This document shows, piece after piece, positions 5,446 to 22,000 of a DNA stretch of 64,000 nt. The position numbers and the translations under genes were made by a program. Source of the DNA: Bacilli bacterium (GTDB lineage Bacteria; Bacillota_I; Bacilli_A; RF39; UBA660); contig JAFXTH010000006.1 of the NCBI GenBank assembly GCA_017525035.1, positions 7,714-71,713 of the forward strand. Direction: 5' to 3'. Under the pieces are notes generated by a model. The model saw only the letters and a list, made by a program, of their open reading frames with translations. It had not been told where the DNA came from and did no database searches. How positions within the stretch are numbered: position 1 is the first letter of the stretch; each line of letters starts with the position of its first letter.

Positions 5446-5506
5446 AAAAACAAAAAGGATTATTTGAATAAATAATTCTTTTTTTAATTGTTACTAAATT
5501 TATAAT

Positions 5507-5870: not shown

Positions 5871-5916
5871 TTTGCATAAAAATTAAGTTTATTACTTAAT
5901 TTTTTTTTATTCTAAT

Positions 5917-5933
5917 CTCTACTCAAAGTAGAG
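5917..5933. promoter_or_regulatory. perfect palindrome CTCTACT-CAA-AGTAGAG at the -35 position of the XRE-ABC promoter
   Basis: 7-bp arms. It lies about 21 nt upstream of the extended -10 TGTATAAT (5954-5961). Candidate auto-operator for the HTH of the downstream gene. Confidence 0.35.
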
Positions 5934-5979
5934 AAGCAATATTATTGACTTATTGTATAATTAATTTGAGGTGATTTAA

Positions 5980-6963: not shown

Positions 6964-8494
6964 TTTAATAAAAGGAGAATTTATAAAGAATTTCAAAATT
7001 AAAAAAATTATAATAGTCTTAATTATCTTATTACTTTCTATAGTTGGAAAAAATTATATAGATGAGTTGAAGATTACAAATGACAATAAAGCTATTTTAG
7101 AGCAAAGTGTTTCATATTTTAAAAATCAACTTGATTTTTACAAAAGTCATCCTGATACAAATCAAATAAAAAAGGAATGGTATTTATTCTCAAATCAAAA
7201 GAATTATGAAATGTATAATAAACTATTGAAAAGTGAAAAATACAATGATTTATCAACACAAAGCTGGCAACATGAATTAAGTAGACGTATTGTCAAAATT
7301 GATACATTAGTTTTTTGGATAGAAAAATATAAAGCAGATAAAAACGTAGACATTAGTTGGATAAATGAAGATTATGAGTTTACTTTGATGTATCAAACTT
7401 ATTTGGAAAAACTATCAAATATGAGTAATGAAGAATTAAGTCAAGAACAGGATAGGATGTTAAAGACTAAATCCGATTTTGAAAACCTTTTAAAAGATAA
7501 TAAATATTACAAGTATATCGAATATATATTAAATAATAATATAGACGATGCAATTTGGATATACGATATTTTTGAATTAGAAACTAAATATTATGAAGTA
7601 ATTATTGATAATAAAGTAGAGGAAGAAAGTTATTTAGTAAAAAATATTAATCAACTAAGAACATTAGGAGTCTTTAATTATGAAAATAAAAGAGCAAATG
7701 ATTTAAGAGATTCTATATTAAAAAAAGATAGAGAAATATTAAAATATTCAATAGATAAAGTTAAAAAGCAAGATATTTCATATGGAGCAATCAGCGTAGG
7801 TGCAGAATCGATTTATATTAGTACCAAATCTTGCGTTAATGGAATATTAGATTTATCAATTGTAATTATGATATTAGTTGTATTATTAGATGGTAATATT
7901 GTTAGCAAAGAGCATAATAAAGGTACTGAAAAATTATTACTAACAACCTCAAACAAGAGGTGGAAAATTCTACTTAGTAAATTTTTATATCTTATTTTAG
8001 AAACATATATTATCTGGTTTGTTGCATTAATACTTCTATTATTATTTGCAGGATTAAAATATGGATTTAATGATTTAATAACTCCAAAGATTTTATATCA
8101 AAACGGAAAAATTATTGAAGTAAATTATATTATTTATATAATAAAACAAATATTTTATTGCAGTATTCCAGTATTAGCTTTTATATCAATAGTTTTTATG
8201 ATTTCAACGATTACCTTAAATTCTGGACTTACAAATGGATTATGTATGATCTTTGCAATTATTTCACCTTTTATGTGGCATTTTATTTATAATTATCATT
8301 TATCGTTATTATCTTTTTTACCATTTCCTTATTTTATGTTCAGTAGTGTTATCACTGTAACTGAAGATTATTTAGGTTCTGTTGATGTTTCATATGCGTC
8401 AGAAGTATATGGTATTATAATTTCATTAGTTACTTTTGTTACATGTTATATAATATCAAATATAGTATTTATAAAAAGAGATGTTAAAAATTAA
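6950..8494 (+). CDS. ABC-2-type permease with large extracytoplasmic domain
   Basis: Overlaps the upstream ATPase gene by 14 nt. One N-terminal TM helix, an approximately 270-aa soluble region, then 5-6 C-terminal TM helices. Confidence 0.6.
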   Translation: MKIIDLIKGEFIKNFKIKKIIIVLIILLLSIVGKNYIDELKITNDNKAILEQSVSYFKNQLDFYKSHPDTNQIKKEWYLFSNQKNYEMYNKLLKSEKYNDLSTQSWQHELSRRIVKIDTLVFWIEKYKADKNVDISWINEDYEFTLMYQTYLEKLSNMSNEELSQEQDRMLKTKSDFENLLKDNKYYKYIEYILNNNIDDAIWIYDIFELETKYYEVIIDNKVEEESYLVKNINQLRTLGVFNYENKRANDLRDSILKKDREILKYSIDKVKKQDISYGAISVGAESIYISTKSCVNGILDLSIVIMILVVLLDGNIVSKEHNKGTEKLLLTTSNKRWKILLSKFLYLILETYIIWFVALILLLLFAGLKYGFNDLITPKILYQNGKIIEVNYIIYIIKQIFYCSIPVLAFISIVFMISTITLNSGLTNGLCMIFAIISPFMWHFIYNYHLSLLSFLPFPYFMFSSVITVTEDYLGSVDVSYASEVYGIIISLVTFVTCYIISNIVFIKRDVKN

Positions 8495-8555
8495 TTAAAA
8501 ATATTATAATTCTACTTTTAATAGGTGTTATTTAATAGTTTCTCGAATTAATATT

Positions 8556-8583
8556 ATTCACGAAAGGAGGAATATTCGTGAAT
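8556..8583 (+). promoter_or_regulatory. 9-bp perfect inverted repeat bracketing RBS and start codon
   Basis: ATTCACGAA-AGGAGGAATA-TTCGTGAAT. The SD sits in the loop and the GTG start (8578) in the 3' arm. Confidence 0.4.
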
Positions 8584-9330
8584 CAAGAAAAAATAGGAAG
8601 GTTTATAAGTGAAAGAAGAAAAATAAAAAAAATGACTCAAGCTGAACTTGGAGAAATACTTGGAGTAAGTGATAAATCAGTATCAAAATGGGAAACTGGA
8701 AAATGCATGCCAGATTTATCATTGTTTCCTGAATTGTGTAAAGTGCTTGATATTACAATTAATGATCTCATGAGTGGTGAAAAAGTAGACAACGAAAAAT
8801 ACATTAACACACTTGAAGTCAATATAGTTAAACTAGCAGATTCCTTAAAAAAGAAAAGAAAAAATAAAATTAAAATGTGCATTATTACTGCTATTATATT
8901 TTTATTTGCTATTTGGGGATATACTGCATATTATAATCTTGCAGAAGAAACTATATCATTTGATGTTGGAATGATGACTTGTAATGTATATAATAATGAA
9001 TTAACTTTTAGTATAAAAGGAACATCGATTTTAAATGAGCATTACACTATAAAAAAAGTAGATGGAAAAGATGTTTATATTTTTAATTGTACACTATTAA
9101 AAAAATATAAAGACTTTTATGCATGGGAATTAAAAAAAGGAATTAATTGTTTAGATGGAGACATTTATTGTAAACAAGGAACTCGTCATAATTTCAAGCT
9201 TAAAGATGACAATATTGATGTATATTATACAGAGTATTCTATAAGTAAATTTGAAAAAGCTACCAATGATGAATTAAAAAATCTTTTAGAAAAATCAAAC
9301 AAAATGGATTGCTCAAATGAAGAAGAATAA
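8578..9330 (+). CDS. membrane-anchored XRE-family HTH protein
   Basis: GTG start behind AAGGAGG. N-terminus KMTQAELGEILGVSDKSVSKWETGKCMPD, a single TM helix (MCIITAIIFLFAIWGYTAYY), then an approximately 130-aa outside domain. Confidence 0.75.
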   Translation: MNQEKIGRFISERRKIKKMTQAELGEILGVSDKSVSKWETGKCMPDLSLFPELCKVLDITINDLMSGEKVDNEKYINTLEVNIVKLADSLKKKRKNKIKMCIITAIIFLFAIWGYTAYYNLAEETISFDVGMMTCNVYNNELTFSIKGTSILNEHYTIKKVDGKDVYIFNCTLLKKYKDFYAWELKKGINCLDGDIYCKQGTRHNFKLKDDNIDVYYTEYSISKFEKATNDELKNLLEKSNKMDCSNEEE

Positions 9331-9360
9331 GAAAAAGATAAACATCTTTTTCTTTTTATT

Positions 9361-9388
9361 CACTTATTAATACAAATCTCATACACTA
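9361..9388 (+). promoter_or_regulatory. sigma-K/E-like promoter of the split amidase gene
   Basis: tCAC-N16-CATACACTA. CATACAnT matches the B. subtilis sigma-E -10 consensus, and AC-N16/17-CATAnnnTA matches the sigma-K consensus. AGGTGA RBS, ATG at 9404. Confidence 0.45.
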
Positions 9389-9403
9389 ATATAGGTGATT
9401 ATA

Positions 9404-9460
9404 ATGAATGAAAGAACTACTAAAAGAGTAGTAGTTGATGCAGGGCATGGAGGACACTGA
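9404..9460 (+). pseudogene. 5' fragment of split N-acetylmuramoyl-L-alanine amidase (codons 1-17, then element-derived His-stop)
   Basis: MNERTTKRVVVDAGHGG-H-stop. DAGHGG is the start of the Amidase_3 motif that continues at 20804. Confidence 0.85.
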
Positions 9461-9564
9461 AAAGCCCAAAATGATAAATGGCTACTGAATCGTGATGTAA
9501 AAGAAGGAATTTTTTAATTCTTACTTTTTTTATGTTATAATATTAATTATGATAGGAGAGTACT

Positions 9565-12090
9565 ATGTTAGAGTTAAAAAATGTTAATAAAATATATAAA
9601 TCTAAGAATGCTAATGATACTGAAGCTTTAAAGAATATCAACATATCTTTTAATAATGTTGGTATGACTTTTATTCTAGGAAAAAGTGGGTGTGGTAAAA
9701 GTACTCTTTTAAACATATTAGGTGGACTTGATATTCCAACAAGTGGAGAAATAGTATTTAAAGGTAAATCATTTAAGTTGTTTAAAAACAATGACTATGA
9801 TAGTTATCGTAATACTTCTGTTGGATTTGTTTTTCAAGAATACAATTTAATCGAAAAGTTTAATGTATTTGATAATGTAGCATATGCTTTAAAACTTCAA
9901 AACAAAAAAATTGATGATAATGTTGTACTAGATGTTTTAGATAAAGTAGGATTAAAAGATCTTGCAAAAAGGAAAGTAAATGAATTATCAGGAGGACAAA
10001 AACAAAGAGTAGCTATTGCTAGAGCTCTTGTTAAGAATCCAAGCATAATTTTAGCAGACGAACCAACAGGAAACTTAGATAGTGAGAGTTCAAAAATGAT
10101 TTTTGACATACTTAAAAATCTTTCACATGAAAGATTAGTAATAGTAGTATCTCATGATGAAGAAAGTGCTAGAACTTATGGAGATAGGATAATAAGCCTT
10201 CAAGATGGAGTAGTAATAAGTGATACTAATCCTATTATTAATCAAGAAGAAAACAATTATACTTTAAAGAAAAATCATTTACCATTTACTGAAGCATTTA
10301 GATTTGCATTAAAAAATATATTTGGTAGAAAAGGTAAGTTAATTTTATCTATAATATTAATATCTTTTGCATTATCATTCTTTGGCTTTGCAGTAATGCA
10401 AAACAAATTAAGAAGTACTAATGAAATAGAAAGAATAATAAATGAATATGATGTAAACTATATTGATATAGAAAAATTAGAGGAGAATTATAGTAATTGT
10501 ATTTTTAAAGGCTATTGGCGTAACTGCTACAATGAAGGAATTATAACAGAAAAAGAATATAATGATTTATCGCAAATAAATGAAACTCCTCTTACTATAA
10601 GATATAGATTTCAAGTATTAAATGCCTATATTAAGCCAATAGAATTATCAGATGAAGAACATAATAAAATGAGTTATTATTATTCAAATTATAAGTATAT
10701 GGGTGCTTTTTCTGAATTAAATAAAGAAGATTTTAATTTTAAATTAATTGGAAGTGTACCAAATACTTATGATGAAATAGTAATAATAAAACCAGTAGCA
10801 GATTACATAATAAAATATGGTGTATATCTAGATAATAATGAAGAATATAAACCACAAAGTTACGAAGAAATAATAAATGATAATAAATATTTAAAATTTG
10901 GTAATGGTAAAGTAAAAATATCAGGAATAATAGATGATGACTTGTCTATATTTGAACCTTTAAAAAATATTAGTAGTGATATAAGAGAAGATAGCTTATC
11001 ACTTGAAAATAAACGATTAATAGAAAAGTATAAATATAAATATCCAGTTCATTTTTATGCTTTAACTGATTTTAAAGATAATATAGAATTAAATGAAAAT
11101 AGTACAAGATATTTTAATATATTAGATAGTAATGATGAATTAAAAACTATAAAAGCTTTTGAACCAATGAAAGTATATACTGAAAATGGACTTATTGATA
11201 TGAAACAAATAGATAAAAGTGGCATAATAGTAAACGAAAACTATTTGGACATTATATCTAAAGGTGATTTCTCTAAAAAAATGAACGATTATATTATTAA
11301 AGGAAAAGATATTGATCCATCAAAATCAAGTGAAGATTATCGTTTAGAATTTGTAACAAATTATATTAAAGAAAATGATATTACTAATAAAATGGTAGCA
11401 TTCTATTTGGCTAAATTATATTCAAATGATGAAAATAATCAAGAAATGCACTTAAAAATATCTGGTGTCATTCTAGATAGTGAAGACTACTATGCTAGTA
11501 AAGAAATACTAAGTCAAGATAGTGATGAAAAATATAATATGTCTTTATATGTATTAACTAAAAATATTAAAGATTATAACAAATACTTTAACGAGTACCC
11601 AATAGATGGAGAACAATATATATCTACAAATGATTTTATTTATAGAATAGCTGAACATGAATTTACTATGAAAGTATTAGCTAAATATATTTTTATAATA
11701 GGTTTAGTATTCTCATTATTTGCTATACTTCAATTATTTAATTTTATAGGTTTATCAATAACTGATAATAAGAAAGAAATAGGAGTTTTAAGAGCTCTTG
11801 GAACAACAAAAAAAGATGTATCAAAAATATATTCAATACAAGGCCTTTTAATTGGATTATTATCATATATGTTATCAATAATTTTGATTATTATCTATTC
11901 TAAAGGAGAAAATGATATTTTTCTTTCAAATTATTTGAAAGAAGTATTTAATTTAGAATTATTTGGCATAACATTTAGTACACTTGCAATAGTATTTGTA
12001 TTCTTTGTAGTAGTTGTATTATTGTCAGTAATAAGTGTAACTTTTAAAATATCTAAGATGAGACCAATAGATGCAATTAATAATAAGTAA
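9565..12090 (+). CDS. fused ABC transporter ATPase-permease (MacB/FtsX type)
   Basis: Walker A GKSGCGKST, signature LSGGQKQRV, Walker B IILADEPTGNLD. Then a TM helix, an approximately 430-aa outside domain, and a C-terminal FtsX block (KKEIGVLRALGTTKKDV). TGTTATAAT promoter at 9533-9541. Confidence 0.85.
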   Translation: MLELKNVNKIYKSKNANDTEALKNINISFNNVGMTFILGKSGCGKSTLLNILGGLDIPTSGEIVFKGKSFKLFKNNDYDSYRNTSVGFVFQEYNLIEKFNVFDNVAYALKLQNKKIDDNVVLDVLDKVGLKDLAKRKVNELSGGQKQRVAIARALVKNPSIILADEPTGNLDSESSKMIFDILKNLSHERLVIVVSHDEESARTYGDRIISLQDGVVISDTNPIINQEENNYTLKKNHLPFTEAFRFALKNIFGRKGKLILSIILISFALSFFGFAVMQNKLRSTNEIERIINEYDVNYIDIEKLEENYSNCIFKGYWRNCYNEGIITEKEYNDLSQINETPLTIRYRFQVLNAYIKPIELSDEEHNKMSYYYSNYKYMGAFSELNKEDFNFKLIGSVPNTYDEIVIIKPVADYIIKYGVYLDNNEEYKPQSYEEIINDNKYLKFGNGKVKISGIIDDDLSIFEPLKNISSDIREDSLSLENKRLIEKYKYKYPVHFYALTDFKDNIELNENSTRYFNILDSNDELKTIKAFEPMKVYTENGLIDMKQIDKSGIIVNENYLDIISKGDFSKKMNDYIIKGKDIDPSKSSEDYRLEFVTNYIKENDITNKMVAFYLAKLYSNDENNQEMHLKISGVILDSEDYYASKEILSQDSDEKYNMSLYVLTKNIKDYNKYFNEYPIDGEQYISTNDFIYRIAEHEFTMKVLAKYIFIIGLVFSLFAILQLFNFIGLSITDNKKEIGVLRALGTTKKDVSKIYSIQGLLIGLLSYMLSIILIIIYSKGENDIFLSNYLKEVFNLELFGITFSTLAIVFVFFVVVVLLSVISVTFKISKMRPIDAINNK

Positions 12091-12117
12091 AAAACTATCT
12101 TGATGATAGTTTTTTTA
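12091..12117. terminator. bidirectional terminator
   Basis: AAAACTATC-TTGAT-GATAGTTTTTTT between convergent genes. Confidence 0.7.
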
Positions 12118-12118
12118 T

Positions 12119-12673
12119 TTATAAAAAGATAAATAATATTAATATTATAGAAACAAATATAGATATAATTAATAATTTATAATCAATTTTATTTTGTTCA
12201 ACAATTTTCTTATTAAGTTCTTCTTTACTACATTCCTTAGAATTATTTAATAATTTTCTATATTTAGACATTATATCTTTGTTAATCAAGCTACTTAATA
12301 ATACTGGATGGTATTTAACAAATAATACCACTAAGATTACTAATAATGGACCACTTAATGGAAATAGCCTTATATATAGTAATATTACCACATCCCATTT
12401 TTTTATACAGTATAATATGAACAGAAACCATAATAATAAATATATAGTTGTTCTAATCATTTTCTTAGAAATTGAATAAAACCAACCAAATAAAAAGTAT
12501 TCATCTTTAGGATTCCCATTGTTTTCAAAATTATATTGAATATACTGTTCTACATCATATGATGAATATTTTTCTGAAAATTCATCTACTATTTTTGAAT
12601 TAAATAAGTTACCACATCTAGGGCAAAAGTTTAATTGCCCTTTGAATTTAGAATTACATTTCGAACATATCAT
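12119..12673 (-). CDS. zinc-ribbon membrane protein (DUF2628-like); paralog of 4864-5445
   Basis: MICSKCNSKF..FCPRCG followed by TM helices. The listed start 12715 overlaps a TGGTATAAT promoter on the minus strand, so ATG 12673 behind GAAAGGA is preferred. Confidence 0.65.
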   Translation of the reverse strand: MICSKCNSKFKGQLNFCPRCGNLFNSKIVDEFSEKYSSYDVEQYIQYNFENNGNPKDEYFLFGWFYSISKKMIRTTIYLLLWFLFILYCIKKWDVVILLYIRLFPLSGPLLVILVVLFVKYHPVLLSSLINKDIMSKYRKLLNNSKECSKEELNKKIVEQNKIDYKLLIISIFVSIILILFIFL

Positions 12674-12741
12674 ATATATTTTCCTTTCATAAAAATTATA
12701 CCATAAAATAGACATTTTAGTTAAATAGTAAGTTACTAGCT

Positions 12742-12897
12742 AGCAAGCACTGAATTTGTCCGACAAAGTAAGTTTTCAGTAATTGCTAATAACAGCAAGC
12801 ACTGAATTTGTCCGACAAAGTAAGTTTTCAGTAATTGCTAATAACAGCAAGCACTGAATTTGTCCGACAAAGTAAGTTTTCAGTAATTGCTAATAAC
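12742..12897 (+). repeat. three perfect tandem copies of a 52-nt hairpin unit
   Basis: Unit AGCAAGCACTGAATTTGTCCGACAAAGTAAGTTTTCAGTAATTGCTAATAAC at 12742, 12794 and 12846. The arms AGCAAGCACTGAA / TTCAGTAATTGCT pair at 11 of 13 positions. Confidence 0.95.
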
Positions 12898-13022
12898 AGC
12901 AAGTACTGAATTTGTAATACAAACTCAATTTGGATTTTAATTCACTGCTTGCAAGCAAGCACTGAATTTATGTCCAAGTGCCACAAATCCAAATATTCAA
13001 TGGAGGTTAAACCCCAATCCCC
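12898..13022 (+). repeat. conserved hairpin-module element, copy R2
   Basis: About 90% identical to 5745-5870 (1 indel, about 11 substitutions). Seeds at 12898 and 12954. Confidence 0.6.
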
Positions 13023-13071
13023 AGCCCTTTTCTATTAATAAAAAATATGATACAATATTATCAAGTTAGAG

Positions 13072-13800
13072 GTGGTCAAAGTGATAGTAGTATCTTCTAT
13101 ATTAATTATACTTCTATTATCAATTTATCTTATTGAAAGAAAGCAATTAAAAAAGGAAACCAAAAAGAAATTATTACTAACATTGTTTGTAGTATTATTA
13201 ACTAATATTATATCTTTTAGCCCCATTGCATTAATACTTGTTTTAATAGTTATCATACTGATATATTCATGGAAAGAAATAAATGAAAAAACAAAGAAAA
13301 AAATTTACAAAATATGTGCTATTACTTTAGGAATCACATTATTATTTTTCATTTTAACACCTAGGTGGCTTTACTATCGAGTATTGTACCTTGATGATAG
13401 AGTAAAAATAACTGCTAAGATATATGTAGATGGAGAACAAATGAATATAGATGAAGATTTTGTTACTATAGGTGGTAAAGGAATAGGAAAAAAACACATC
13501 AGCAGTGGTGATGATGGAATAAAAATATCATTCAAGGGAAACGAATATGAAAATTATCATATTAATATGAAAATAGAACCATATCACAATGATTATTACA
13601 TCGACTTATTACTTCAACATTGGAATTGGTGGGATATAAATCGTATTGATGTAGTAATAAATATAGACACAAAAGAAAACACAATTAGTTATTCTGTAGA
13701 AAATAGATTTATTTCTGAAGAAAAAAATTATACAGAAGATGTATTAACATTGAGTGAAACAAAAGAATTATCAACAATTAATAAACTGTTTCTTGGGTAA
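13072..13800 (+). CDS. membrane protein, unknown function
   Basis: GTG start (13072 or 13081) behind AGAGGTGG. TGATACAAT extended -10 at about 13047-13055. 3-4 TM helices then an approximately 130-aa soluble domain. Confidence 0.55.
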   Translation: MVKVIVVSSILIILLLSIYLIERKQLKKETKKKLLLTLFVVLLTNIISFSPIALILVLIVIILIYSWKEINEKTKKKIYKICAITLGITLLFFILTPRWLYYRVLYLDDRVKITAKIYVDGEQMNIDEDFVTIGGKGIGKKHISSGDDGIKISFKGNEYENYHINMKIEPYHNDYYIDLLLQHWNWWDINRIDVVINIDTKENTISYSVENRFISEEKNYTEDVLTLSETKELSTINKLFLG

Positions 13801-13840
13801 CTAATTGAATTTAAGTAAAAAAATAAAGAGATAATTCTCT

Positions 13841-14608
13841 TTATTTTAATTGTTCTAATATTTCGATAATTTCATCTTTTGTGTAATTATAGCTTATAAA
13901 TTGATAGTAAACATTATCATATACAAAAGCTGCAGTCATTCTAGTTTTATCCCAATTATTTTCATAAATAACTGCCTTAGTATTAAGATTCTTTATTTCA
14001 TATACTAGATCTAATTCTTTTTCACCTGTTGCATCTTTTCCTTCTAAGAATGGATATATGTATCTTTCTTCAGCACACTTATTTAGAATAGATATATCTA
14101 CAGAAATAACTTTTCCTGTTTTATCTCCGTTCTTACCAAATTGACCATTAGTATTATCAATAAATTCAGACCACCACAAGTGGACTACTCCAATTTCTCC
14201 ATTACTATTTAAAGATGTACTATATCCTATTGATTTACTAGTTGTGTAATCATAGTCTAAGATATGGAAGCCAAGATTTTGTTCGACTTCATTGTGTGTC
14301 ATACTAACAAAATTTTCACTTTTTCTAGCATTAATGTTTATTTCTTTAAAATTTGCATTTTCCACAATATTTACTTTCGTTCCATCTTCAAACTCAACAC
14401 CTGTAGACCAACTTTTAAATAACTCTGCTATTTGTTTTGCATATACAATTGATATAGATATTGTAAATACTAATACTATTAAACCCAAAGAATAACCAAG
14501 TTTTTTATAATTATATTTTCTTTTGCTAATAGTTTTTTCCATTATTTTGTTTTCCAAATTATCACTTATTCTTATTGATTTGTAAGAATCACTAATTTTA
14601 TTATTCAT
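13841..14608 (-). CDS. putative anti-sigma factor (single-pass, DUF4367-like outside domain)
   Basis: Overlaps the stop of the upstream sigma gene by 8 nt. A short cytoplasmic N-terminus, one TM helix (LGYSLGLIVLVFTISISIVYA), then an approximately 190-aa outside domain. Confidence 0.5.
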   Translation of the reverse strand: MNNKISDSYKSIRISDNLENKIMEKTISKRKYNYKKLGYSLGLIVLVFTISISIVYAKQIAELFKSWSTGVEFEDGTKVNIVENANFKEININARKSENFVSMTHNEVEQNLGFHILDYDYTTSKSIGYSTSLNSNGEIGVVHLWWSEFIDNTNGQFGKNGDKTGKVISVDISILNKCAEERYIYPFLEGKDATGEKELDLVYEIKNLNTKAVIYENNWDKTRMTAAFVYDNVYYQFISYNYTKDEIIEILEQLK

Positions 14609-15080
14609 TATTTTCCTCCTTAATAATTTCCTTTAATTTTTTTCTTGCTCTATAAAGAATTGTTTGAATATTAGTTTCTGTTTTTTTCATTATACTTGAT
14701 ATTTCTCTAATTCTATAATTTTCATAATAATATAAAAAAATAACAAGTCTTTCATCTTTAGAGAGTTTATTTATTTCATCTAGAAGCTCACATTCTTTAT
14801 TATCAACTTTTAAAATATTTTCCTCTTTTTCTGTTAAAGTACATATCTTTCTTTTCCAAGATGATAAGAATATAGTTTTACAATTATTAATGGTTATTTT
14901 GATTAACCATTTTTTAATTTCAGTATCGTTACATTCAAGAATTTTCTTTTTTTTATATAGTTTTATGAAAACATTTTGAACTACATCATCAGAGTCTGCA
15001 ATATTTTTTGTATAACTATATGCTAATCTATAGATATCATTTTTATATAAATTAAAAATTCTTAAGAATTGTTCATCCAT
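14601..15080 (-). CDS. ECF-like sigma-70 family RNA polymerase sigma factor
   Basis: Region 2 (IYRLAYSYTKNIADSDDVVQNVFIKLY) and region 4 HTH (YENYRIREISSIMKKTETNIQTILYRARKKLK). ATG 15080 behind GGAGG is preferred over the listed 15128. Confidence 0.8.
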   Translation of the reverse strand: MDEQFLRIFNLYKNDIYRLAYSYTKNIADSDDVVQNVFIKLYKKKKILECNDTEIKKWLIKITINNCKTIFLSSWKRKICTLTEKEENILKVDNKECELLDEINKLSKDERLVIFLYYYENYRIREISSIMKKTETNIQTILYRARKKLKEIIKEENNE

Positions 15081-15270
15081 GATTATCCTCCATATATTGA
15101 AAAGCTTTTCACTATAATAACTATTCATTATTATAAAATATCACATAATATTTAAAAAAATATAAATAATAATACATTACAAATAAAAAACTACACTATT
15201 AGTACAATATTAGAACAAAAGAAATTTTGATTTCTTCTTTTAAATGTTATAATAAAAAAGGGGTGATTTT

Positions 15271-16698
15271 ATGGATGATGATTTTCTAATTGAATATATA
15301 GAACATGAAGTAGAAAATGGTTGTATCGATTTTAAAAAAGATATTTATGATTTTGATGTTCCAAAATGCAAGGAAGATTTTTTAGTCGATGTTATATCTT
15401 TTGCAAACAGTCATATTAATGGTGATAAATATATAATAACCGGAATTAAGCTACACAAAGATAATTCAAGAGACTTTAATGGAATAACTGAGTCCAAAAT
15501 TAAAGATGGTGCTGATTATCAGAGTATAGTAAATGATAATATAGAGCCAAATATAGTAGTTGATTTTAAAATAATTGAATATAAAAACAAAAAATATGGT
15601 ATTTTTAGAATTGGTAAAGAGAATCAAGATCAACCATACTTATTGAGTAAGCAATTTCTCAATTTGCAAAAGGGATTTATAAGAATAAGAAAAGGTCAAA
15701 AAAATGAAAACATTACAAGAAGAGATTTTGACTTATACTATAAAATTAAAGATTTAAATGATTATAGCAATATTCATATTAAAGGAATAGTTGATGGAAA
15801 AATAAGTGATAAATATCAAATAAATCAATACAATGATAATTTGAATTTTGAAAAGGCAAAGTCATTAATAAATGAAACTATAGTAGAAATAAAGAAAATT
15901 AAGTTAGCCAAAAGCTCTAATTTTTTGGCATTTGGGGATTTATTGTCACTGGATGAAAAAGAAATAGAAACAATTAAAACATATGCACAATTATATAGTA
16001 TAGTTTTAACTGATGATTTTTTTGATATAGGTAATATTAGGATTTTTACTGGTCCATATTCATCAGCAAGTTTATATGGAAGCAAAACTGAAGAAAAAAA
16101 ATATAAATTAATACGTAAGTTGATTACTATGATTTCAAGTTTTTTAGGATTTGATGAGTATTATAAAAAGATTAATTCTATTTATTACACAGAATTATTA
16201 ATAAAAAATGAAGGAAAAAAATTTGATGAAGATATTGAAGTAACATTAAAAATTGAGAAAAGTAAATTATTAAATTATTCTAAATTTCCTGTACCACCAG
16301 AGTCAATAATAGAAAAAATAATAGATGATAAATTATTAGATAAACATTTGAATAATCAAAAGGTAAATGGTGTTAATAATTATACTTGTAAAATTCCGAG
16401 AATATTTCCAACTTATCCAATGAAAATAAAATTGCCAATTGGATATTCGAAACCAGATTATAAAGAATATGTAGATTACTATATAAACTATGTTCAAACA
16501 ATTGCAGATTATGATGTAAGTGAGGATGAAGATTATTATTATTTAAAATATAATCAAAGGGAGATAAAACCTAATGAATTAATACATTTACCAGCTAGGA
16601 TTATTTTTATTGATAAACCTAATGAAATAGAATATGAAATTAAAACAAAATATAATTCAAATATAAATAAAGGGAAAATATCATTGATTGAAAAATAA
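15271..16698 (+). CDS. AlbA_2/Schlafen-like (divergent AAA-type DNA/RNA-binding) N-domain protein with unknown C-terminal half
   Basis: N-terminus EHEVENGCIDFKKDIY...DVISFANSHINGDKYIITGIK...YGIFRIG..QPYLL resembles the PF04326 pattern (E..LEFK, then aNt.GG.l.iGv). The C-terminal 270 aa have no recognisable motif. Confidence 0.45.
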   Translation: MDDDFLIEYIEHEVENGCIDFKKDIYDFDVPKCKEDFLVDVISFANSHINGDKYIITGIKLHKDNSRDFNGITESKIKDGADYQSIVNDNIEPNIVVDFKIIEYKNKKYGIFRIGKENQDQPYLLSKQFLNLQKGFIRIRKGQKNENITRRDFDLYYKIKDLNDYSNIHIKGIVDGKISDKYQINQYNDNLNFEKAKSLINETIVEIKKIKLAKSSNFLAFGDLLSLDEKEIETIKTYAQLYSIVLTDDFFDIGNIRIFTGPYSSASLYGSKTEEKKYKLIRKLITMISSFLGFDEYYKKINSIYYTELLIKNEGKKFDEDIEVTLKIEKSKLLNYSKFPVPPESIIEKIIDDKLLDKHLNNQKVNGVNNYTCKIPRIFPTYPMKIKLPIGYSKPDYKEYVDYYINYVQTIADYDVSEDEDYYYLKYNQREIKPNELIHLPARIIFIDKPNEIEYEIKTKYNSNINKGKISLIEK

Positions 16699-16782
16699 AA
16701 ATTATATAATTAAAAAAAAGATTAGAAATCAATGTTTCTAATCATTTTTAATTTGTTATAATATTTATCCAAATTCTCTTTT

Positions 16783-17190
16783 TTATTTAAAGTAATCCTT
16801 GATTGCTGCTTTAATAGTTTTTTGATCATTTTTACTTTGGGATTTAAACCATTTTGTATTGGTTATGTCATTACTTGCAAAATAACTAGAGAATAATTTT
16901 TTATAAGTGTTCTGCCTTGCCATATATTCTTCCATTTCTGGATCTATGGTAGTTTCTATATCTTCTTTAGAAAAACCTGCAATAGTCATTAATTCCCTTA
17001 AATCTAAGTTAAGTACATTTGCCATCTTTTTAAGAGTTAAGGCATTTGTACTTTTTCTTTCTCCATTTTCCAATCTAGCTATGGTATTATTACCAACTCC
17101 TATTTGCCTAGCTAATTCTCTTTGTGATATTCCTTTCTTTTCTCTAGCTTCTTTAATAATATCAGCTAATTCTCTTTTATTATTTGTCAA
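16783..17190 (-). CDS. XRE/cI-like HTH repressor
   Basis: GISQRELARQIGVGNNTIARLENGERKST, a classic HTH_3. It is the second gene of a leftward operon facing a divergent promoter region. Confidence 0.8.
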   Translation of the reverse strand: MTNNKRELADIIKEAREKKGISQRELARQIGVGNNTIARLENGERKSTNALTLKKMANVLNLDLRELMTIAGFSKEDIETTIDPEMEEYMARQNTYKKLFSSYFASNDITNTKWFKSQSKNDQKTIKAAIKDYFK

Positions 17191-17201
17191 ATTATCACCT
17201 T

Positions 17202-17930
17202 CTAATTTGTTTTCCTTTTATAATTATTTTTTAGTTGCTTTTCTATTTTCTTAGATAAACTTTTAACTAATTGTTCATAGTTTTTAGATAAATATAATTC
17301 ATTATCAATTATACTCAATCCAATTATTGCTTTCTGTGTATATGCTCTTTCAAATACTATCCTTTTTTCACTTATTAATTCTTTTAATACTTGCCCACCA
17401 TCATCCGTACAAATGACAAATGTTATTTCAAGTCCTCCAACTTTTGTTTCTTTCATAATGCTATTGTAAAAATCTACCATTTTATCGATAGCTACTTCCT
17501 TATTTTTTGAATTAAATGATTTTGTATGATGAGTAACTATAATACTATAACAATCATTGTGATACGTTTTAATGTATAAAGATAAATCTTTATCTGATTT
17601 TTTTAATTCAAAGTTATGTTGTTTCATTGATTTACTAAAATCTTTAAAAAAATGCTCGTATGTCTTATAGGGACTTACATAAACATCTGGTTGAACAATC
17701 TTTTTCTTTTCTTTTTTAACTATAATATTCTTTTTTTCAGCGATACACATTAAAATTATCAAAAATAAACTTGCAATCCAAGCTACAATTCCAAAAATAG
17801 TAGGGATTAAATCTGAATAATGAAATATTAGACAACCCAAGCCAATTATAAAAAACAGAGACCAACTAATAATAACAATGTAAAAAAATAGATAATATAA
17901 TATTTTCAATAATAGCGTTTTTTTATCCAT
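17202..17930 (-). CDS. membrane protein, unknown function (co-operonic with the repressor)
   Basis: Three N-terminal TM helices then an approximately 150-aa cytoplasmic domain. No HExxH, so it is not an ImmA-type protease. Confidence 0.55.
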   Translation of the reverse strand: MDKKTLLLKILYYLFFYIVIISWSLFFIIGLGCLIFHYSDLIPTIFGIVAWIASLFLIILMCIAEKKNIIVKKEKKKIVQPDVYVSPYKTYEHFFKDFSKSMKQHNFELKKSDKDLSLYIKTYHNDCYSIIVTHHTKSFNSKNKEVAIDKMVDFYNSIMKETKVGGLEITFVICTDDGGQVLKELISEKRIVFERAYTQKAIIGLSIIDNELYLSKNYEQLVKSLSKKIEKQLKNNYKRKTN

Positions 17931-17941
17931 CTCATTATCAC

Positions 17942-18040
17942 CACAATTATAGTATTACACAAATTGTGTCCTTTTGCAACAAAAATGTTGACTTTTATTT
18001 TCTATCCATGTTATATTGTAGTAAAGATATTGTGTCTTTA
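17942..18040. promoter_or_regulatory. divergent promoter/operator region (lysogeny-switch-like)
   Basis: Half-sites CACAAT (17942), CACAA-A-TTGTG (17958-17968), and ATTGTGTC at 17963 and 18029. Rightward promoter: TTGACT (17988-17993), 17-nt spacer, TTATAT (18011-18016). Leftward TATAAT on the minus strand at 17946-17951. Confidence 0.55.
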
Positions 18041-18071
18041 GGAAACAATACAACAAATAAGGAGGGGAAAT

Positions 18072-18335
18072 ATGCATGAAAAGAAAGAACTAGATATGAG
18101 TAATCATAGGATATGGAAAGATAAGAATATTAAACCTGAATGTAAAAGAATATTTGCTTATCTATATTCAAAAGGATTTAATGTATCAGATTTCTATTTA
18201 AATGTGGGAGACATACAACAAGTAGTAAGAATTAAAAATGTTGGATTAAGAAAGAATCTAAGTACATTAGAAGATAATAAGTATCTAATATTTAGAGAAT
18301 ATGATACAGGAATGTATGAAATAAGTATTTGTTAG
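18072..18335 (+). CDS. small winged-helix-like protein
   Basis: AAGGAGGGG RBS. 87 aa. CKRIFAYLYSKGF...IQQVVRIKNVGLRKNLSTLEDNKYL resembles phage/plasmid wHTH replication or regulatory proteins. Confidence 0.5.
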   Translation: MHEKKELDMSNHRIWKDKNIKPECKRIFAYLYSKGFNVSDFYLNVGDIQQVVRIKNVGLRKNLSTLEDNKYLIFREYDTGMYEISIC

Positions 18336-18457
18336 ATTGGTAAAACACTAATAAATAATGGTACAGTAAATGTTTTGAGATTTATGTTAGTACCTTTTCT
18401 ATTAGATATAGAAAAAACATCGGTAAGAAAAGTCCTAATTTAATAATAAGGAGAATT

Positions 18458-18928
18458 ATTATATTAAATGGTCAATTTATCATTACTCCTAGAATATTAT
18501 TTAATGATGAGAACTTATCAAGAACTGAAATAGATGTTCTTAGTCTCATTATTTCACTTACCTTAAAAAAAGGATTTTGTTTTGCGAGTAATGACTATTT
18601 AAAAAAATATATTAATACATCAGAAAGAACAATTACTAGTTCATTGTCAAAATTAAAACAATTAAAATATATAATAATTAAAACAAATAACAATAAAAGA
18701 AGAATATATCTTAATAGAGATAAGATACCAGCAGAAATTTCTAAATGGATAGCAAGAAATTGCAATGGAGAGGTAGAAAAAACTTGCGACTATAAAATAA
18801 AGAATAAAAATAAAAAAGAGAATAAAAACATTAATCCATATTGGTTAGATCATCCTGAAATGATTAAAGAACCGAGCATTACTGAAGAAGAAAGAAAAGA
18901 ATTGGAAGACTTACTTAATAATTTCTAA
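18458..18928 (+). CDS. HTH (replisome-organizer/DnaD-N-like) protein with non-canonical or damaged start
   Basis: The frame is open from 18359. The conserved-looking N-terminus GQFIITPRILFNDENLSRTEIDVLSLIISL...ERTITSSLSKLKQLKYI lies upstream of the first ATG (18644). AAGGAG at 18448 is followed only by ATT/ATA codons in frame, and ATG 18468 is out of frame by 1 nt. Confidence 0.45.
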   Translation: MILNGQFIITPRILFNDENLSRTEIDVLSLIISLTLKKGFCFASNDYLKKYINTSERTITSSLSKLKQLKYIIIKTNNNKRRIYLNRDKIPAEISKWIARNCNGEVEKTCDYKIKNKNKKENKNINPYWLDHPEMIKEPSITEEERKELEDLLNNF

Positions 18929-18948
18929 TAAAAAGGGGGAATGATTAA

Positions 18949-19089
18949 ATGGAGGTAGTATATAATGTAAAAAATAAATATAAGACAAATGAATTTAGTT
19001 CAACTGATGACATGAAAAAAATAATTAATATTAAACTAATAAATGTCATTATGAAATTAGAAAAACAAAAATATCTATTAAACAATTAA
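18949..19089 (+). CDS. 46-aa ORF directly upstream of the recombinase (speculative directionality-factor candidate)
   Basis: AAAAGGGGGA RBS 8 nt upstream. MEVVYNVKNKYKTNEFSSTDDMKKIINIKLINVIMKLEKQKYLLNN. No homology can be asserted. Confidence 0.25.
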   Translation: MEVVYNVKNKYKTNEFSSTDDMKKIINIKLINVIMKLEKQKYLLNN

Positions 19090-19094
19090 CGAAA

Positions 19095-19114
19095 ATATGT
19101 TATATATAACATAT
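19095..19114. promoter_or_regulatory. perfect 20-bp palindrome upstream of recombinase gene
   Basis: ATATGTTATA|TATAACATAT, 35 nt upstream of the recombinase start. Confidence 0.5.
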
Positions 19115-19149
19115 CATCGATTAAGTAGCCATTTATCCGAAATGGAGGA

Positions 19150-20757
19150 ATGGCTATGGTAGAAAAGGTAGGTGTATATTGTAGATTATCTGATGAAGAT
19201 AGAGATAAAGTAAATAAAACTGATGATAGTGATAGCATAATAAATCAAAGAAGTATGTGTTTAAAATATGCCAATCAAAATGGTTGGGATGTAGTAGATA
19301 TATATTCTGATGATGACTTTTCTGGAGCTGGAACTTATAGACCAGATTTTGAAAGACTTATTAAAGATTGTGAAAGTGGAAAAATTAACCTTGTTCTTTG
19401 TAAATCTCAATCAAGATTTTCAAGAGATATGGAAGTAATAGAAAGATACCTTCATAATAAGTTCATAGAGTGGGGTGTAAGATTCGTTAGTATCGTAGAT
19501 AATGCAGATACTAGCATTGAATCAAACAAGAAATCTAGACAGATAAATGGGCTTATAAACGAGTGGTATTTAGATGACTTATCACAAAATATTAAAAAGT
19601 CATTAAAGAACAAAAGAGAAGATGGTTTGTTTATGGGTAGCTTTGCTTCTTATGGATATGAAAGAGATGAAGAAGATTATCATAAACTAATAATTGATCC
19701 AGTAGCAGCAGAAGTTGTTAGAAAGATATTTCAAATGTATGCAGAAGGATATGGATATCACAGAATATGTGTTTATTTAAACAATAATAAGATTCCACCA
19801 AGATCCATTTATAAAAAACAAAAAGGTAGTAAATTTGTTTGTGGAAGTTGTGATTATGATAATGTTATGTGGAATCCAGATACAATTGCTCAAATATTAA
19901 GAAATGAAGTATATATTGGTAATTTAGTTCAAGGAAAAACAACACATGTTAGTTATAAAAATCATAAAAAGAAAAATGTTCCTCAAAAAGAATGGTGCAA
20001 GATAGAAAATACCCATGAACCAATTATTGATATGGAAACCTGGAATAAGGTCCAAGAAATACTAAATAATCACTTTAAGACAACCAAGAATAAGCAAATG
20101 ACTTATTTCACAAAAAAAGTGTATTGCAGTTGTTGTGGTAAAGCATTTATGAGAAATGTTTATAGTGTTAAATCAGAGAAAACTGGAAAAAGAGCATATA
20201 TGCAATGTAAAGGAAATAAAAAGTATCATATTTGCTCAAATAATAAAGCAATTAGAATGGATAAACTCGAAGAAATAGTATTAAAAGAAATAAATGATTT
20301 ATTAAAGAATTACTATGATAAGAATAATTTAAAAGATCTCTATGAAAAAAGATGTTTACAAGAAACAAATAATATTGATTCAATAAAAAATCTAGAAAAA
20401 GAAAAAGAAGAACTAAATAAAAAGATTTCTACTAATAAAAACTATTATAGAAATCTATTTGAAGAAAAAGTAAAAGGTGTAATTTCTGAAGATATGTTTC
20501 AAATGATGTCGAAAGACTATTTCAATGAAATCGAAAATATGATGATTAGAATTGAAGTAATTGATAATGAGATAAAAGAGATAAAAAAAGACAAAATTGA
20601 TAAGAAACAAGCTACAGATATATTAAATAAATATAGACACATTAAAAAGTTGAATAAAGTAATTCTAGATGAATTTATTGATAAGATTTTTATAGGAGAA
20701 ATTGATAAAAACAATAATACAAGAGATATAGAAATAATATGGAACTTTGAGTTCTAA
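19150..20757 (+). CDS. large serine recombinase
   Basis: N-terminal resolvase domain with VGVYCRLSDEDRD (catalytic Ser), DSDSIINQR and SQSRFSRD. Recombinase domain, then Cys-rich zinc ribbon (CSCCGK...CKGNKKYHICSN), then a long coiled-coil C-terminus. The start may be ATG 19156 behind GGAGG. Confidence 0.92.
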   Translation: MAMVEKVGVYCRLSDEDRDKVNKTDDSDSIINQRSMCLKYANQNGWDVVDIYSDDDFSGAGTYRPDFERLIKDCESGKINLVLCKSQSRFSRDMEVIERYLHNKFIEWGVRFVSIVDNADTSIESNKKSRQINGLINEWYLDDLSQNIKKSLKNKREDGLFMGSFASYGYERDEEDYHKLIIDPVAAEVVRKIFQMYAEGYGYHRICVYLNNNKIPPRSIYKKQKGSKFVCGSCDYDNVMWNPDTIAQILRNEVYIGNLVQGKTTHVSYKNHKKKNVPQKEWCKIENTHEPIIDMETWNKVQEILNNHFKTTKNKQMTYFTKKVYCSCCGKAFMRNVYSVKSEKTGKRAYMQCKGNKKYHICSNNKAIRMDKLEEIVLKEINDLLKNYYDKNNLKDLYEKRCLQETNNIDSIKNLEKEKEELNKKISTNKNYYRNLFEEKVKGVISEDMFQMMSKDYFNEIENMMIRIEVIDNEIKEIKKDKIDKKQATDILNKYRHIKKLNKVILDEFIDKIFIGEIDKNNNTRDIEIIWNFEF

Positions 20758-20794
20758 ATACTAATAATAAATTTGGACTTTTCCGATGCCCCGA

Positions 20795-22000
20795 CATGGA
20801 GGAAGCGATCCAGGTGCTGTTAATGGAAATATAAAAGAAAAAGATTTTAACTTACAAGCAGCAAATTATATATATGAAAGATTAAATGAATTAGGAGTTC
20901 CAGTAGCAATTACTAGAATAGATGATGAAGATATTGGAAGAAGTGAAAGACTAAGAAGAATGGTTAATTCATTTGGTAATGATAAAGATGTGATAATTCT
21001 TTCTAATCATATTAACGCAGGAGGTGGAGAAGGAGCAGAAGTAGTTTATTCTTTAAGAAATGATGACACACTTTCTAAAATGATACTTGATGAAATAGGA
21101 AATGCTGGTCAAATAGAAAGAAAAGTTTATCAAAGAAGATTACCAGAAAATCCAAGTAAAGATTATTATTACATAATGCGTGAGACTCCAAATACTGAAG
21201 CAGTATTAATTGAATATGGCTTTATTGATAACCCAAGAGATTTGTATAAACTTCAAAATAATTTATATGATTATGCTGAAGGTGTTGTTAAAGCTGTTAC
21301 TAATTATATAGGTGTACCTTATATTCCAAAGGAAGAAACAATTGTAGATACAAATACTTATATTGTTAAAAGTGGAGATACACTTTATTCAATTGCAAGA
21401 GCTTATAACACTACGGTGGATGAATTAAAAAGAATTAATAGGTTATCTAATAATGTTTTATCTATTGGGCAAACTTTATTGATACCGGAAACTGAAGAAG
21501 AACTTCAAAGTGATTATTTAATATATACTGTTAAGAAGGGTGATACATTATATTCAATTGCAAGAGCATTTAACGTAACTGTGGATGAGATAATTACGCT
21601 AAACAGATTAAATAGTATTGGCTTATCAATTGGTCAACAATTGTTAATCCCAGAAAATGGAATTCAAATAATCGGAGTTGTTGATTACACAATAAAACCT
21701 GGTGACAGTTTATGGAAAATTGCTAATAGATGTGGTGCAACTGTTGATGACATTGTTAAACTAAACAACCTAGATTCAACAATTATTTATCCAGGACAAA
21801 TAATAAAGTTATCTGAGCCATGCGCAGCAAAACAAAATTACGAAGAATATGAAACTTACATAGTTAAAAGAGGCGATACACTTTATTCAATTTCAAAAAT
21901 GTTTAACACCACTCCAAGTGTGATAAAAGAATTAAATAATTTAAATACTGATATGCTTCAAATAAATCAGATGCTTATATTACCAAAAGAAAATGTCTAA
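20795..22000 (+). pseudogene. 3' part of split N-acetylmuramoyl-L-alanine amidase (Amidase_3 + 4 LysM)
   Basis: HGGSDPGAVNGNIKEKDFNL...LSNHINAGGGEGAEVVY (Amidase_3 zinc ligands), followed by four LysM repeats (Y.VK.GDTLYSIA..). The listed ATG 20786 lies in element DNA and has no SD. Confidence 0.88.

Follow-up and report, generated by a model that had tools for sequence, protein, structure and literature searches.

We analyzed a stretch of 64,000 nucleotides (hereafter the window, to which all positions refer) of contig JAFXTH010000006.1 from a Bacilli bacterium, in which a gene encoding a cell-wall amidase with LysM repeats is split by an inserted element that carries a gene for a large serine recombinase (LSR). 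The 5' fragment of the amidase gene (9404-9460, + strand) consists of 17 codons, MNERTTKRVVVDAGHGG (9404-9454), followed by a His codon and a TGA stop codon (9455-9460) that are provided by element DNA. The 3' fragment (20795-22000, + strand) encodes residues 15-415, which begin with HGGSDPGA and include four LysM repeats, and ends with the stop codon; the frame that starts at 20795 (HGGSDPGAVNGN) is open for 401 codons up to the stop at 22000, and its product matches the Pfam families Amidase_3 and, four times, LysM. A stretch of 9 nt, CATGGAGGA, is identical at both junctions (9446-9454 and 20795-20803). The inserted element (9455-20803) has a length of 11,349 bp and a G+C content of 24%, compared with 27% for the window, and its boundary can be moved within the 9-nt identity; comparison with the family of related elements described below places the exchange point at the dinucleotide CA at 9446-9447 and 20795-20796. 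The LSR gene (19150-20757, + strand; 535 aa) stops 37 nt before the CA of the right junction. The first-pass annotation of this DNA had described the ATG at 9404 running into His-TGA, the recurrence of the 9 nt in frame with about 400 codons and four LysM repeats, and a 535-aa large serine recombinase that ends the insert about 40 nt from the right junction, all of which agrees with our reading of the sequence. It had also dismissed the ATG at 20786 as a spurious start, and rightly so: this codon belongs to an element arm, and because most related elements have ATA or ATT instead, it is not a conserved start.

Removal of the insert had been claimed to restore one open reading frame (ORF), and joining positions 9404-9454 and 20804-22000 in silico indeed results in an uninterrupted ORF of 415 codons. 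The repaired protein contains a complete Pfam Amidase_3 domain (PF01520; residues 9-184, positions 1-174 of the 174 of the model) plus four LysM domains, and shows the HGG, E29 and SNH86INAG motifs that represent the zinc ligands and the catalytic Glu of Amidase_3 enzymes; in the 3' fragment alone, the Amidase_3 match begins only at model position 7. A protein search with the joined product revealed many full-length orthologs and an intact allele, P0001, a protein of 414 aa with the N-terminus MNERTTKRVVVDAGHGGSDPGA that is 99% identical to the repaired protein and has the empty site that was predicted. The N-terminal 17 codons of the window gene are identical to those of P0001, and the 51 nt of the 5' piece are homologous to the N-terminus of the intact orthologs (P0001, P0008-P0011), as the annotation had supposed. 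The 3' fragment is 98.5% identical to P0001 and shows no decay. P0001 is encoded on two metagenome contigs, L001 and L002, both of which lack the element. Their DNA reads GATGCAGGGCATGGAGGAAGTGATCC across the junction, giving GTAGTAGTTGATGCAGGGCATGGAGGAAGCGATCCAGGTGCT as the attB junction sequence, and they are 94-99% identical to the flanks of the element in the window (94% for a 99-bp promoter/5' stretch and 96-99% for the longer flanks).

P0005 (called as MPRHGG...), the split allele, was read on 11 contigs that cover three sources and at least six samples. Because it was thus found on contigs from several independent samples, we do not regard the split as an assembly artefact. Among the contigs of the window species, the split allele is the commoner one (about 13 of 18). 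At the same site, contigs L003 and L006 contain an element variant of 7,310 bp, which lacks the sigma-factor pair, the Schlafen-like gene and one of the membrane-protein genes of the window element. The 5' piece comprises 18 codons, and the 3' piece has neither promoter nor ribosome-binding site and is missing the strand with which the catalytic domain begins; for these reasons, the amidase gene is probably inactive as long as the element is integrated.

The LSR contains, in this order, the Pfam domains Resolvase (PF00239, 1.4e-24), Recombinase (PF07508, 1.4e-30) and Zn_ribbon_recom (PF13408, 4e-10), as well as DUF4368, and matches a PHROG integrase family (4e-111). Its catalytic-serine motif, YCRLSDED, is invariant in 10 relatives. 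The left attachment site, attL (9423-9470, + strand), is composed of a host B arm, the CA at 9446-9447 and an element P' arm with the inverted-repeat half GAAAAGCCCAAA (9459-9470). The right one, attR (20772-20820, + strand), contains an element P arm with the inverted-repeat half TTTGGACTTTTC (20772-20783), the CA at 20795-20796 and a host B' arm. The reconstructed attP therefore has the structure TTTGGACTTTTC-N11-CA-N11-GAAAAGCCCAAA, in which each repeat half is located 11 nt from the CA and the CA lies on the dyad axis; the attP junction sequence of the window element is predicted to be AAATTTGGACTTTTCCGATGCCCCGACATGGAGGACACTGAAAAGCCCAAAATG. In 25 related loci attL is built in the same way, with synonymously varying host codons followed by CATGGAGGA and a conserved element arm, so that the sequence before the CA consists of host codons and that after it is conserved element sequence (TGGAGGA...). 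At the right junction, a conserved element arm, AATTTGGACTTTTCCGATNCCNNNA, precedes CAYGGNGG in the host's own codons. Over about 85 loci, this P arm is conserved in the closer relatives (LSRs at least about 75% identical) and is recognisably degenerate in the distant ones. Several attL/attR pairs share only the CA (CATGGAGGT and CACGGTGGC in L038 and L069; CATGGAGGA and CACGGAGGT in L027). We considered that the 9-nt repeat might be a target-site duplication and rejected this, since only the CA is obligatorily shared in the family; the TGGAGGA that follows it is element sequence that matches the host codons by chance. Because such pairs share only the CA, and because the repeat halves are equidistant from it, we take CA to be the crossover dinucleotide. 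To judge from this anatomy, the layout is the signature of an LSR site with a CA crossover.

The window LSR has thousands of relatives, and proteins that are 80-85% identical to it are encoded on more than 100 contigs, some of them larger than 1 Mb. On the inspected contigs with a related LSR, the recombinase gene is again located immediately upstream of an Amidase_3 fragment. We then scanned the family using one genome per species, which resulted in 80 loci with full-length recombinases 58-84% identical to that of the window. In 74 of the 78 species-representative loci that could be assessed, an Amidase_3 fragment begins from the His-Gly-Gly codons, 35-1400 nt after the LSR stop codon. The target in these 74 loci is the LysM amidase in 60 cases and a CwlD-like paralog in the other 14. 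The paralog is a protein of about 220 aa with an N-terminal signal or membrane segment that, once reconstructed, matches the NCBIfam model spore_cwlD over its full length (E about 1e-55), with scores of 184-190 bits that lie below the 221-bit cut-off. On the basis of these comparisons, the element is a member of a large family in small-genome gut Bacilli whose named relatives belong to order RF39. Among the individual loci, the CwlD-like paralog was reconstructed in L043, L054, L056 and L058 and is also hit in L016, L022, L037, L053, L063, L067 and L074. LSRs about 83% identical to that of the window occur in either amidase paralog. The smallest member (L070, 2452-5092) measures 2,640 bp from attL to attR and contains little beyond the recombinase gene. 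The amidase 3' fragment of L083 (11641-12847) has a frame break near residue 50, which is either a sequencing error or the sole sign of decay among the split genes. In L066 (after 4346) and L092 (after 4597), LSRs with 58-63% identity are followed by collagen-like GXX repeats (GATGATGAT...GPQGPTGP) and not by an amidase; such repeats are reminiscent of BclA-type exosporium proteins, and collagen-like genes may be a further target of related recombinases.

The amidase has no signal peptide, and its catalytic domain is N-terminal, from residue 9, with the wall-binding repeats at the C-terminus. A promoter-like motif is present upstream of the gene (9362-9388, + strand), consisting of AC (9362-9363), a 16-nt spacer and CATACACTA (9380-9388), followed by the ribosome-binding site AGGTGA (9393-9398, + strand). 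The consensus sequence for sigma-K of B. subtilis is AC-N16/17-CATAnnnTA, so that the motif fits a sigma-K or mother-cell type of promoter. In about 19 of 26 orthologs, whose intergenic DNA has otherwise diverged, CATAnnnTA occurs 23-29 nt upstream of the start codon, mostly with AC-N16 before it. Among 1050-1352 other ORFs with a ribosome-binding site, the -10 motif occurs at this distance in 2.5% and the full motif in less than 1%, and the 64-kb window contains only seven matches to the full motif, none of them within the element. The only other recurrent gene with the motif encodes a 140-aa protein with a SleB/CwlJ catalytic domain that is often a neighbour of the amidase gene; 13 of 15 full-length CwlJ/SleB-like genes carry CATAnnnTA at -23 to -28. 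Besides the two copies of the amidase promoter, full motifs are present in the window in the 63517 region, at 29624-29650 and at 41426-41452, just upstream of the ORFs 63558-63950 (130 aa, no family), 29699-30235 (178 aa, no family) and 41484-43139, respectively, which makes these three ORFs candidate mother-cell genes.

B. subtilis CwlC acts in mother-cell lysis, depends on sigma-K and GerE, has no signal peptide and carries SPOR-type repeats at its C-terminus; the missing signal peptide and the promoter motif of the window amidase fit this picture, but its repeats are of the LysM and not of the SPOR type. A search of NCBIfam gave no match to a CwlC-specific family; the best amidase match was spore_cwlD, with 79 bits, below the cut-off of 221 bits. 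For B. subtilis, cwlC and cwlH have been described as genes for mother-cell lysis at a late stage, and cwlD as a gene under sigma-E control (PMC517825). The name CwlC-like given to the gene in the first-pass annotation is thus supported as a functional analogy, by the architecture, the promoter motif and the sporulation genes of the host, and does not extend to orthology with B. subtilis CwlC. With the absence of a signal peptide, a conserved mother-cell-type motif and sporulation genes in the host, the analogy itself is well grounded, and the amidase is best read as a CwlC-like enzyme that would be made late in the mother cell.

Concerning the host, an alpha/beta-type small acid-soluble spore protein (SASP) gene (58107-58319, + strand; Pfam SASP, 70-aa product) is present in the window, and genes for SpoVIF and SpoIVA are located on the same contig just outside of it. 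A Pfam scan of the large ORFs of the window detected housekeeping genes only and no sporulation genes. Related hosts carry CwlJ/SleB-like and CwlD-like genes. By its gene content, then, the host is predicted to be an endospore former. Candidatus Faecimonas and Candidatus Fimihabitans, named relatives of the host, belong to the order RF39 (PMC8035907, Gilroy et al.). For this order, a thin wall and the presence of sporulating species have been predicted (PMC10868615).

Upstream of the LSR gene, the element contains a core module that is preceded, in the divergent orientation, by a gene for an XRE-family repressor (16783-17190, - strand; Pfam HTH_3 1.5e-17, PHROG repressor families). The predicted core-module promoter (17988-18017, + strand) is of the sigma-A type, with TTGACT (17988-17993), an 18-nt spacer and TATATT with a TG extension; in 59 related loci, TTGACA-N17/18-TATAxT is conserved between repeated operator-like GATGTAAAANTCATC motifs. 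The first gene of the module (18072-18335, + strand) encodes an 87-aa protein without a family match, of which homologs with 44-61% identity occupy the same place in the 59 loci. It is followed by a gene for a HTH_36-like protein (18452-18928, + strand) that aligns with a 158-aa protein of L009 and a 184-aa call of L003. This gene is not likely to be a frameshifted pseudogene, a possibility that we considered and found unsupported: its reading frame is uninterrupted, and the uncertainty concerns the start codon alone. Directly upstream of the recombinase gene lies a gene for a 46-aa protein (18949-19089, + strand; MEVVYNVK...), which has no family match and is conserved in L009 and elsewhere. 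The 46-aa protein may be the recombination directionality factor, for which the 87-aa protein is also a candidate. We also looked for a directionality-factor gene just inside attL, where it could have been driven from the host promoter, and rejected this position, since there is no conserved small ORF and the relatives start with a relaxase gene there. A perfect 20-nt palindrome, ATATGTTATA|TATAACATAT (19095-19114), is located in the promoter region of the recombinase gene, where relatives have a conserved TATAAT-type element; the recombinase gene thus appears to have a conserved sigma-A-like promoter region of its own.

The element also belongs to a family that shows signs of movement. In at least 40 loci the element contains a gene for a Mob_Pre relaxase (MOBV type), which usually follows directly on the left junction. 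The divergence of the LSRs does not follow that of the amidases (Spearman rho 0.07, 1830 pairs), and LSRs that are at least 93% identical sit in amidases that are 43-100% identical; vertical co-divergence of element and host gene was rejected on account of this rho value. Because relaxases are present in at least 40 loci and LSR divergence does not track amidase divergence, we conclude from these comparisons that the family is horizontally mobile and apparently mostly mobilizable. The window copy is a relaxase-less member: its ORFs include no Mob_Pre homolog and no relaxase domain. Taking an integrative mobilizable element to have its own integration/excision module and a relaxase and/or an oriT, but no genes for a conjugative pore, at least 40 family loci qualify and the window element does not. 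Neither do the ORFs of the window element include phage structural genes; their only PHROG matches are to families of integrase, repressor, ABC transporter and sigma factor proteins. For lack of structural genes, we rejected the possibility that the insert is a prophage. The phage records contain only recombinases that are at most 31% identical to that of the window. When the attP pattern was searched for in the Joint Genome Institute (JGI) metagenomes, one contig was found, L096, which derives from a relative. It contains an LSR 82% identical to that of the window, then a P arm, CATGGAGGA, a P' arm and left-end cargo, without amidase sequence, and it is circularly permuted: mapped onto the integrated relative L062, the ends of the contig adjoin each other to within about 26 nt. 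L096 thus looks like an excised circle, which suggests that members of the family excise. Its cargo (2744-9395) comprises a PnuC-type NMN transporter, a nucleoside deoxyribosyltransferase-like protein, an adenylosuccinate synthetase and an NrtR-like regulator.

Taken together, we consider it probable that the window contains an LSR-family element inserted into the attB site of a CwlC-like amidase gene, an insertion that excision can reverse without a scar, and that the family is mainly a horizontally mobile one. According to this explanation, the LSR would recombine the attP of the element with an attB formed by the codons of the VVVDAGHGGSDPGA motif of the Amidase_3 gene, with strand exchange at the CA of the His codon. 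The amidase gene would be off in the integrated state, and the LSR together with a directionality factor (the 46-aa or the 87-aa protein being candidates) would excise the element and rejoin the gene without a scar. A gene that is needed only in the terminal mother cell would be a cheap landing site. The window copy would have kept the unit of repressor, core module and LSR, with the ABC/FtsX transporter, the ECF sigma pair and the Schlafen-like protein described below as cargo. A number of observations weigh against one or another part of this explanation. Thus, CwlC-like refers to architecture and promoter motif and not to orthology. A degenerate and widened attP pattern gave no match in IMG/VR; L096 has no terminal overlap, comes from a relative and not from the window element, and could also represent a tandem array. 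The HTH_36-like gene has no ATG, GTG or TTG at the expected start, where an ATT or ATA after AAGGAG is possible. Finally, no sigma-K- or sigma-E-type motif (AC-N16/17-CATAnnnTA) was found anywhere in the window element, no conserved mother-cell motif in the 2.2 kb upstream of the LSR gene in 78 relatives, and no mother-cell promoter upstream of the 87-aa gene in related loci, and the core module, with its strong sigma-A promoter and operator-like repeats next to an XRE repressor gene, has the look of an ordinary mobile-element switch.

These last points bear most directly on a reading that overlaps with this explanation and adds to it a claim about timing, namely that the element acts as a developmental switch, programmed as in skin, SPβ or gin, which stays in the germ line of the forespore and leaves the chromosome in the mother cell alone, with sporulation controlling the directionality factor or the LSR. 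The amidase would then be rebuilt when mother-cell lysis is needed, and this would be the main remaining activity of the relaxase-less window copy. We give this possibility somewhat less than an even chance. All identifiable targets of the family are amidases of the sporulation type (60 LysM amidases with the mother-cell motif and 14 CwlD-like proteins). Permanent loss of CwlD blocks germination in model organisms, and permanent loss of the CwlD-like targets should do the same. The split genes show no decay except for further precise insertions; L097 and L098 have lost the LSR half of the element and regained an intact amidase with a second promoter copy, which suggests that there is selection on the gene; the host has sporulation genes (SASP, SpoIVA, SpoVIF); and the window element has neither a relaxase nor phage genes. 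In addition, the elements in mother-cell genes that have been tested all excise during sporulation (PMC4191935, PMC5595907, PMC6957869). Against such timing stand the absence of a mother-cell motif from the element and from the conserved core module, the LSR's own conserved sigma-A-like promoter, and the horizontal mobility of a family that does not co-diverge with the host gene; moreover, a recent arrival could account for the missing decay too.

The opposite possibility, that the insertion is a permanent knock-out, would mean that the element no longer excises, for instance because of a defective directionality factor or HTH_36-like gene, and that loss of the amidase is tolerated, either since mother-cell lysis is dispensable or since sporulation is decaying in the lineage. 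The absence of a relaxase from the window element, the HTH_36-like gene without a normal start codon and the prevalence of the split allele in the species (about 13 of 18 contigs) are consistent with it. We nevertheless consider it improbable: no damage is seen in the LSR, 46-aa and 87-aa genes, the repressor gene or either att arm, all of which are 98-100% conserved from sample to sample, the two pieces of the amidase gene are likewise undamaged and share 98.5% identity with the intact allele, empty-site strains exist whose long flanks are 96-99% identical, and the contig retains SASP, SpoIVA and SpoVIF genes. That a chimeric contig joined a mobile element to the amidase gene during assembly or binning has a negligible probability. 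The sole point in its favour is that the sequence belongs to a metagenome-assembled genome; the 11 contigs, which represent three sources and at least six samples, all show these junctions, about 85 loci of other species have them too, with synonymous differences, and the junctions have the att anatomy that is expected for an LSR.

Other insertions were found in the same gene. The contigs L009-L013 are more than 99.5% identical over their shared region, yet differ by further precise insertions in the amidase gene. A second element, of 3,837 bp, encodes a 522-aa LSR that shares about 31% identity with the main family. It interrupts the V-R-G-D|S codons of a LysM repeat, which is repeat 1 in L012 (12211/16041) and repeat 2 in L010 (12370/16200). 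A third element is present in L013 (11868), after AATGCAGGAGGA, which corresponds to the NAGG motif, and in about 30 species representatives the amidase is interrupted at the NHINAGG motif, after which foreign sequence with at least four different ends follows. The window gene contains the first insertion only. One could imagine that the amidase gene is a multi-site landing pad for at least three unrelated elements (at DAGHGG, NHINAGG and LysM RGDS), all of them excised in the mother cell, so that the enzyme would be assembled only after several rearrangements; we regard this more far-reaching scenario as doubtful.

A fossil of the element is present on L097 (204-3030) and L098, which contain an intact 410-aa amidase gene (N-terminus MNKRVVVDAGHGG) with its own second copy of the promoter. 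The gene is directly preceded by a left element end consisting of the promoter, the 5' head, the P' arm of attL and the 841-aa ABC/FtsX gene. This region corresponds to window positions 9375-12098, and its ABC gene is 98.6% identical to that of the window; the core module, the LSR gene and the P arm are all missing.

Reversible interruption of a gene by an LSR element is known from other bacteria. The closest parallels are SPβ in spsM and φ3T in kamA of B. subtilis (recombinase SprA and directionality factor SprB), in which an LSR element likewise splits a mother-cell gene and precise excision rebuilds the ORF. SPβ and φ3T are also working mobile elements, for which excision serves both transfer and gene repair (PMC4191935, PMC5499854, PMC6957869). 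They are, however, large prophages, whereas the window element has no phage structural genes and its family has relaxases. SprA is only distantly related to the window LSR (PDB match, E 5e-11), the target is a cell-wall amidase gene instead of spsM or kamA, and sprB has a mapped sigma-E/K promoter, of which no counterpart was found in the window element. The skin elements in sigK (SpoIVCA in B. subtilis; CD1231 and CD1234 in C. difficile) and gin in gerE of B. cereus also combine an LSR gene located near one end with a mother-cell gene as target, and the minimal gin resembles the 2.6-kb L070 member of the amidase family. Skin and gin are non-infectious and are kept in the spore genome, and gin is a minimal non-prophage element (PMC5595907, PMC5025042). 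Unlike these vertically inherited and immobile elements, whose targets are other genes, the amidase family moves between species; for skin, sporulation-specific excision has been demonstrated by experiment. A recently described target is yabG of Clostridium botulinum, in which integrated and circular forms of the element yin coexist (PMC10747680). Yin is prophage-like and was described for one strain only, in contrast to the at least 80 species representatives with an element of the amidase family. In Listeria monocytogenes, an LSR prophage (A118/φ10403S) splits comK and its reversible excision restores the function of the gene under a specific condition; this is a phage that is excised in host phagosomes and resides in a non-sporulating bacterium, while the window element has no phage genes.

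The closest characterised recombinases are TndX of Tn5397, which is 32% identical to the window LSR over its full length, and TnpX of Tn4451, which matches in the catalytic domain; both share the C-terminal DUF4368 domain with it. Further characterised relatives are the TP901-1 integrase and SprA. The elements of TndX and TnpX use short GA-centred or variable targets, whereas the amidase family uses one long conserved coding motif with a CA crossover, located in sporulation amidase genes. Tn5397, Tn4451 and the LSR-type integrative mobilizable elements of Firmicutes are, like the family described here, integrative elements that conjugation machinery moves (PMC5704250). The pattern of many diverged LSRs at one conserved intragenic site is the same as that reported by Durrant et al. 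in 2022, who found 33 LSRs at one prolyl isomerase site and an enrichment of ComM-type genes among the targets (PMC10083194). The main text of that paper mentions no amidase target, and the paper deals neither with sporulation nor with the stacking of elements in one gene (PMC10083194). The mother-cell genes known to be interrupted are sigK, spoVFB, spoVR, spsM, gerE, kamA and yabG, and the class of intervening elements in sporulation genes comprises skin, SPβ, gin, vfbin, vrin and yin. The first-pass annotation had supposed that an amidase was not yet described as a target, and in the literature that we searched, nothing relevant joins cwlC, cwlD or an amidase with a serine recombinase or an intervening element. 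What is new here is therefore the class of target, cell-wall amidases, and a broad, well-defined family of elements, while reversible gene interruption by an LSR element is already known.

These results place a CwlC-like LysM amidase gene, and a CwlD-like gene of relatives, among the few sporulation genes for which interruption by a recombinase element is known, and extend the phenomenon to uncultured gut Bacilli of the RF39 type, for which sporulation has so far been predicted by gene content. With its dozens of diverged LSRs, for which attP and attB are defined and which share the CA crossover, the family is suited to the study of DNA recognition and could supply orthogonal integration tools. 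If excision is tied to sporulation, attB and attP junction reads would be a culture-free marker for sporulation in gut metagenomes. The stacking of up to three elements in one gene illustrates the convergence of mobile elements on genes that growing cells can do without.

The cargo of the window element starts with a gene for a fused ABC ATPase/FtsX-type permease of 841 aa (9565-12090, + strand; Pfam ABC_tran and FtsX), followed by one for a 198-aa protein (12119-12715, - strand) that looks membrane-bound by its sequence and has weak N-terminal matches to Pfam Zn_ribbon_15 and DZR, both below the cut-off. Next to it is a 52-bp tandem repeat with 3.3 copies and 99% matches (12742-12915); a sequence of about 135 nt that adjoins it (12846-13022) recurs with 88-90% identity outside the element, at 5735-5877, upstream of a HTH-ABC gene. 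Genes for membrane proteins are located at 13072-13800 and at 17202-17930 (the latter on the - strand). An extracytoplasmic function (ECF)-type sigma factor (14601-15128, - strand; Pfam Sigma70_r2 and r4_2) is encoded by a gene that overlaps with a gene for a 255-aa protein without a family match (13841-14608, - strand), which is probably its anti-sigma partner; this pair is absent from the short variant in L003. The 475-aa Schlafen/AlbA_2 protein (15271-16698, + strand) matches Pfam SLFN_AlbA_2 (1.8e-9) and the PADLOC candidate family PDC-S50 (9e-11). We also considered that the cargo might be a defence island and did not retain this reading, for which one PADLOC candidate family (Schlafen-like) and generic ATPase matches (the ABC protein) offer weak support. 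Other members of the family carry a GH10 xylanase, restriction-modification genes, and Abi_2 or HipA as cargo.

The region upstream of the split gene contains repeated copies of its start. Compared with L097, the window has an extra block of 3.8 kb (5558-9374) between direct repeats of about 35 nt of the promoter/start sequence, which contains genes for a HTH-ABC ATPase, an ABC-2 permease and a HTH membrane protein. A relic third copy of the amidase promoter, together with ATGAATGG, is present at 5508-5557. A 791-bp segment (8565-9355) with a gene for a 250-aa HTH_3 membrane protein (8578-9330) is absent from the empty-site contigs L001 and L002; it is bounded by TTATTCAC repeats, one of which provides the -35 region of the amidase promoter.

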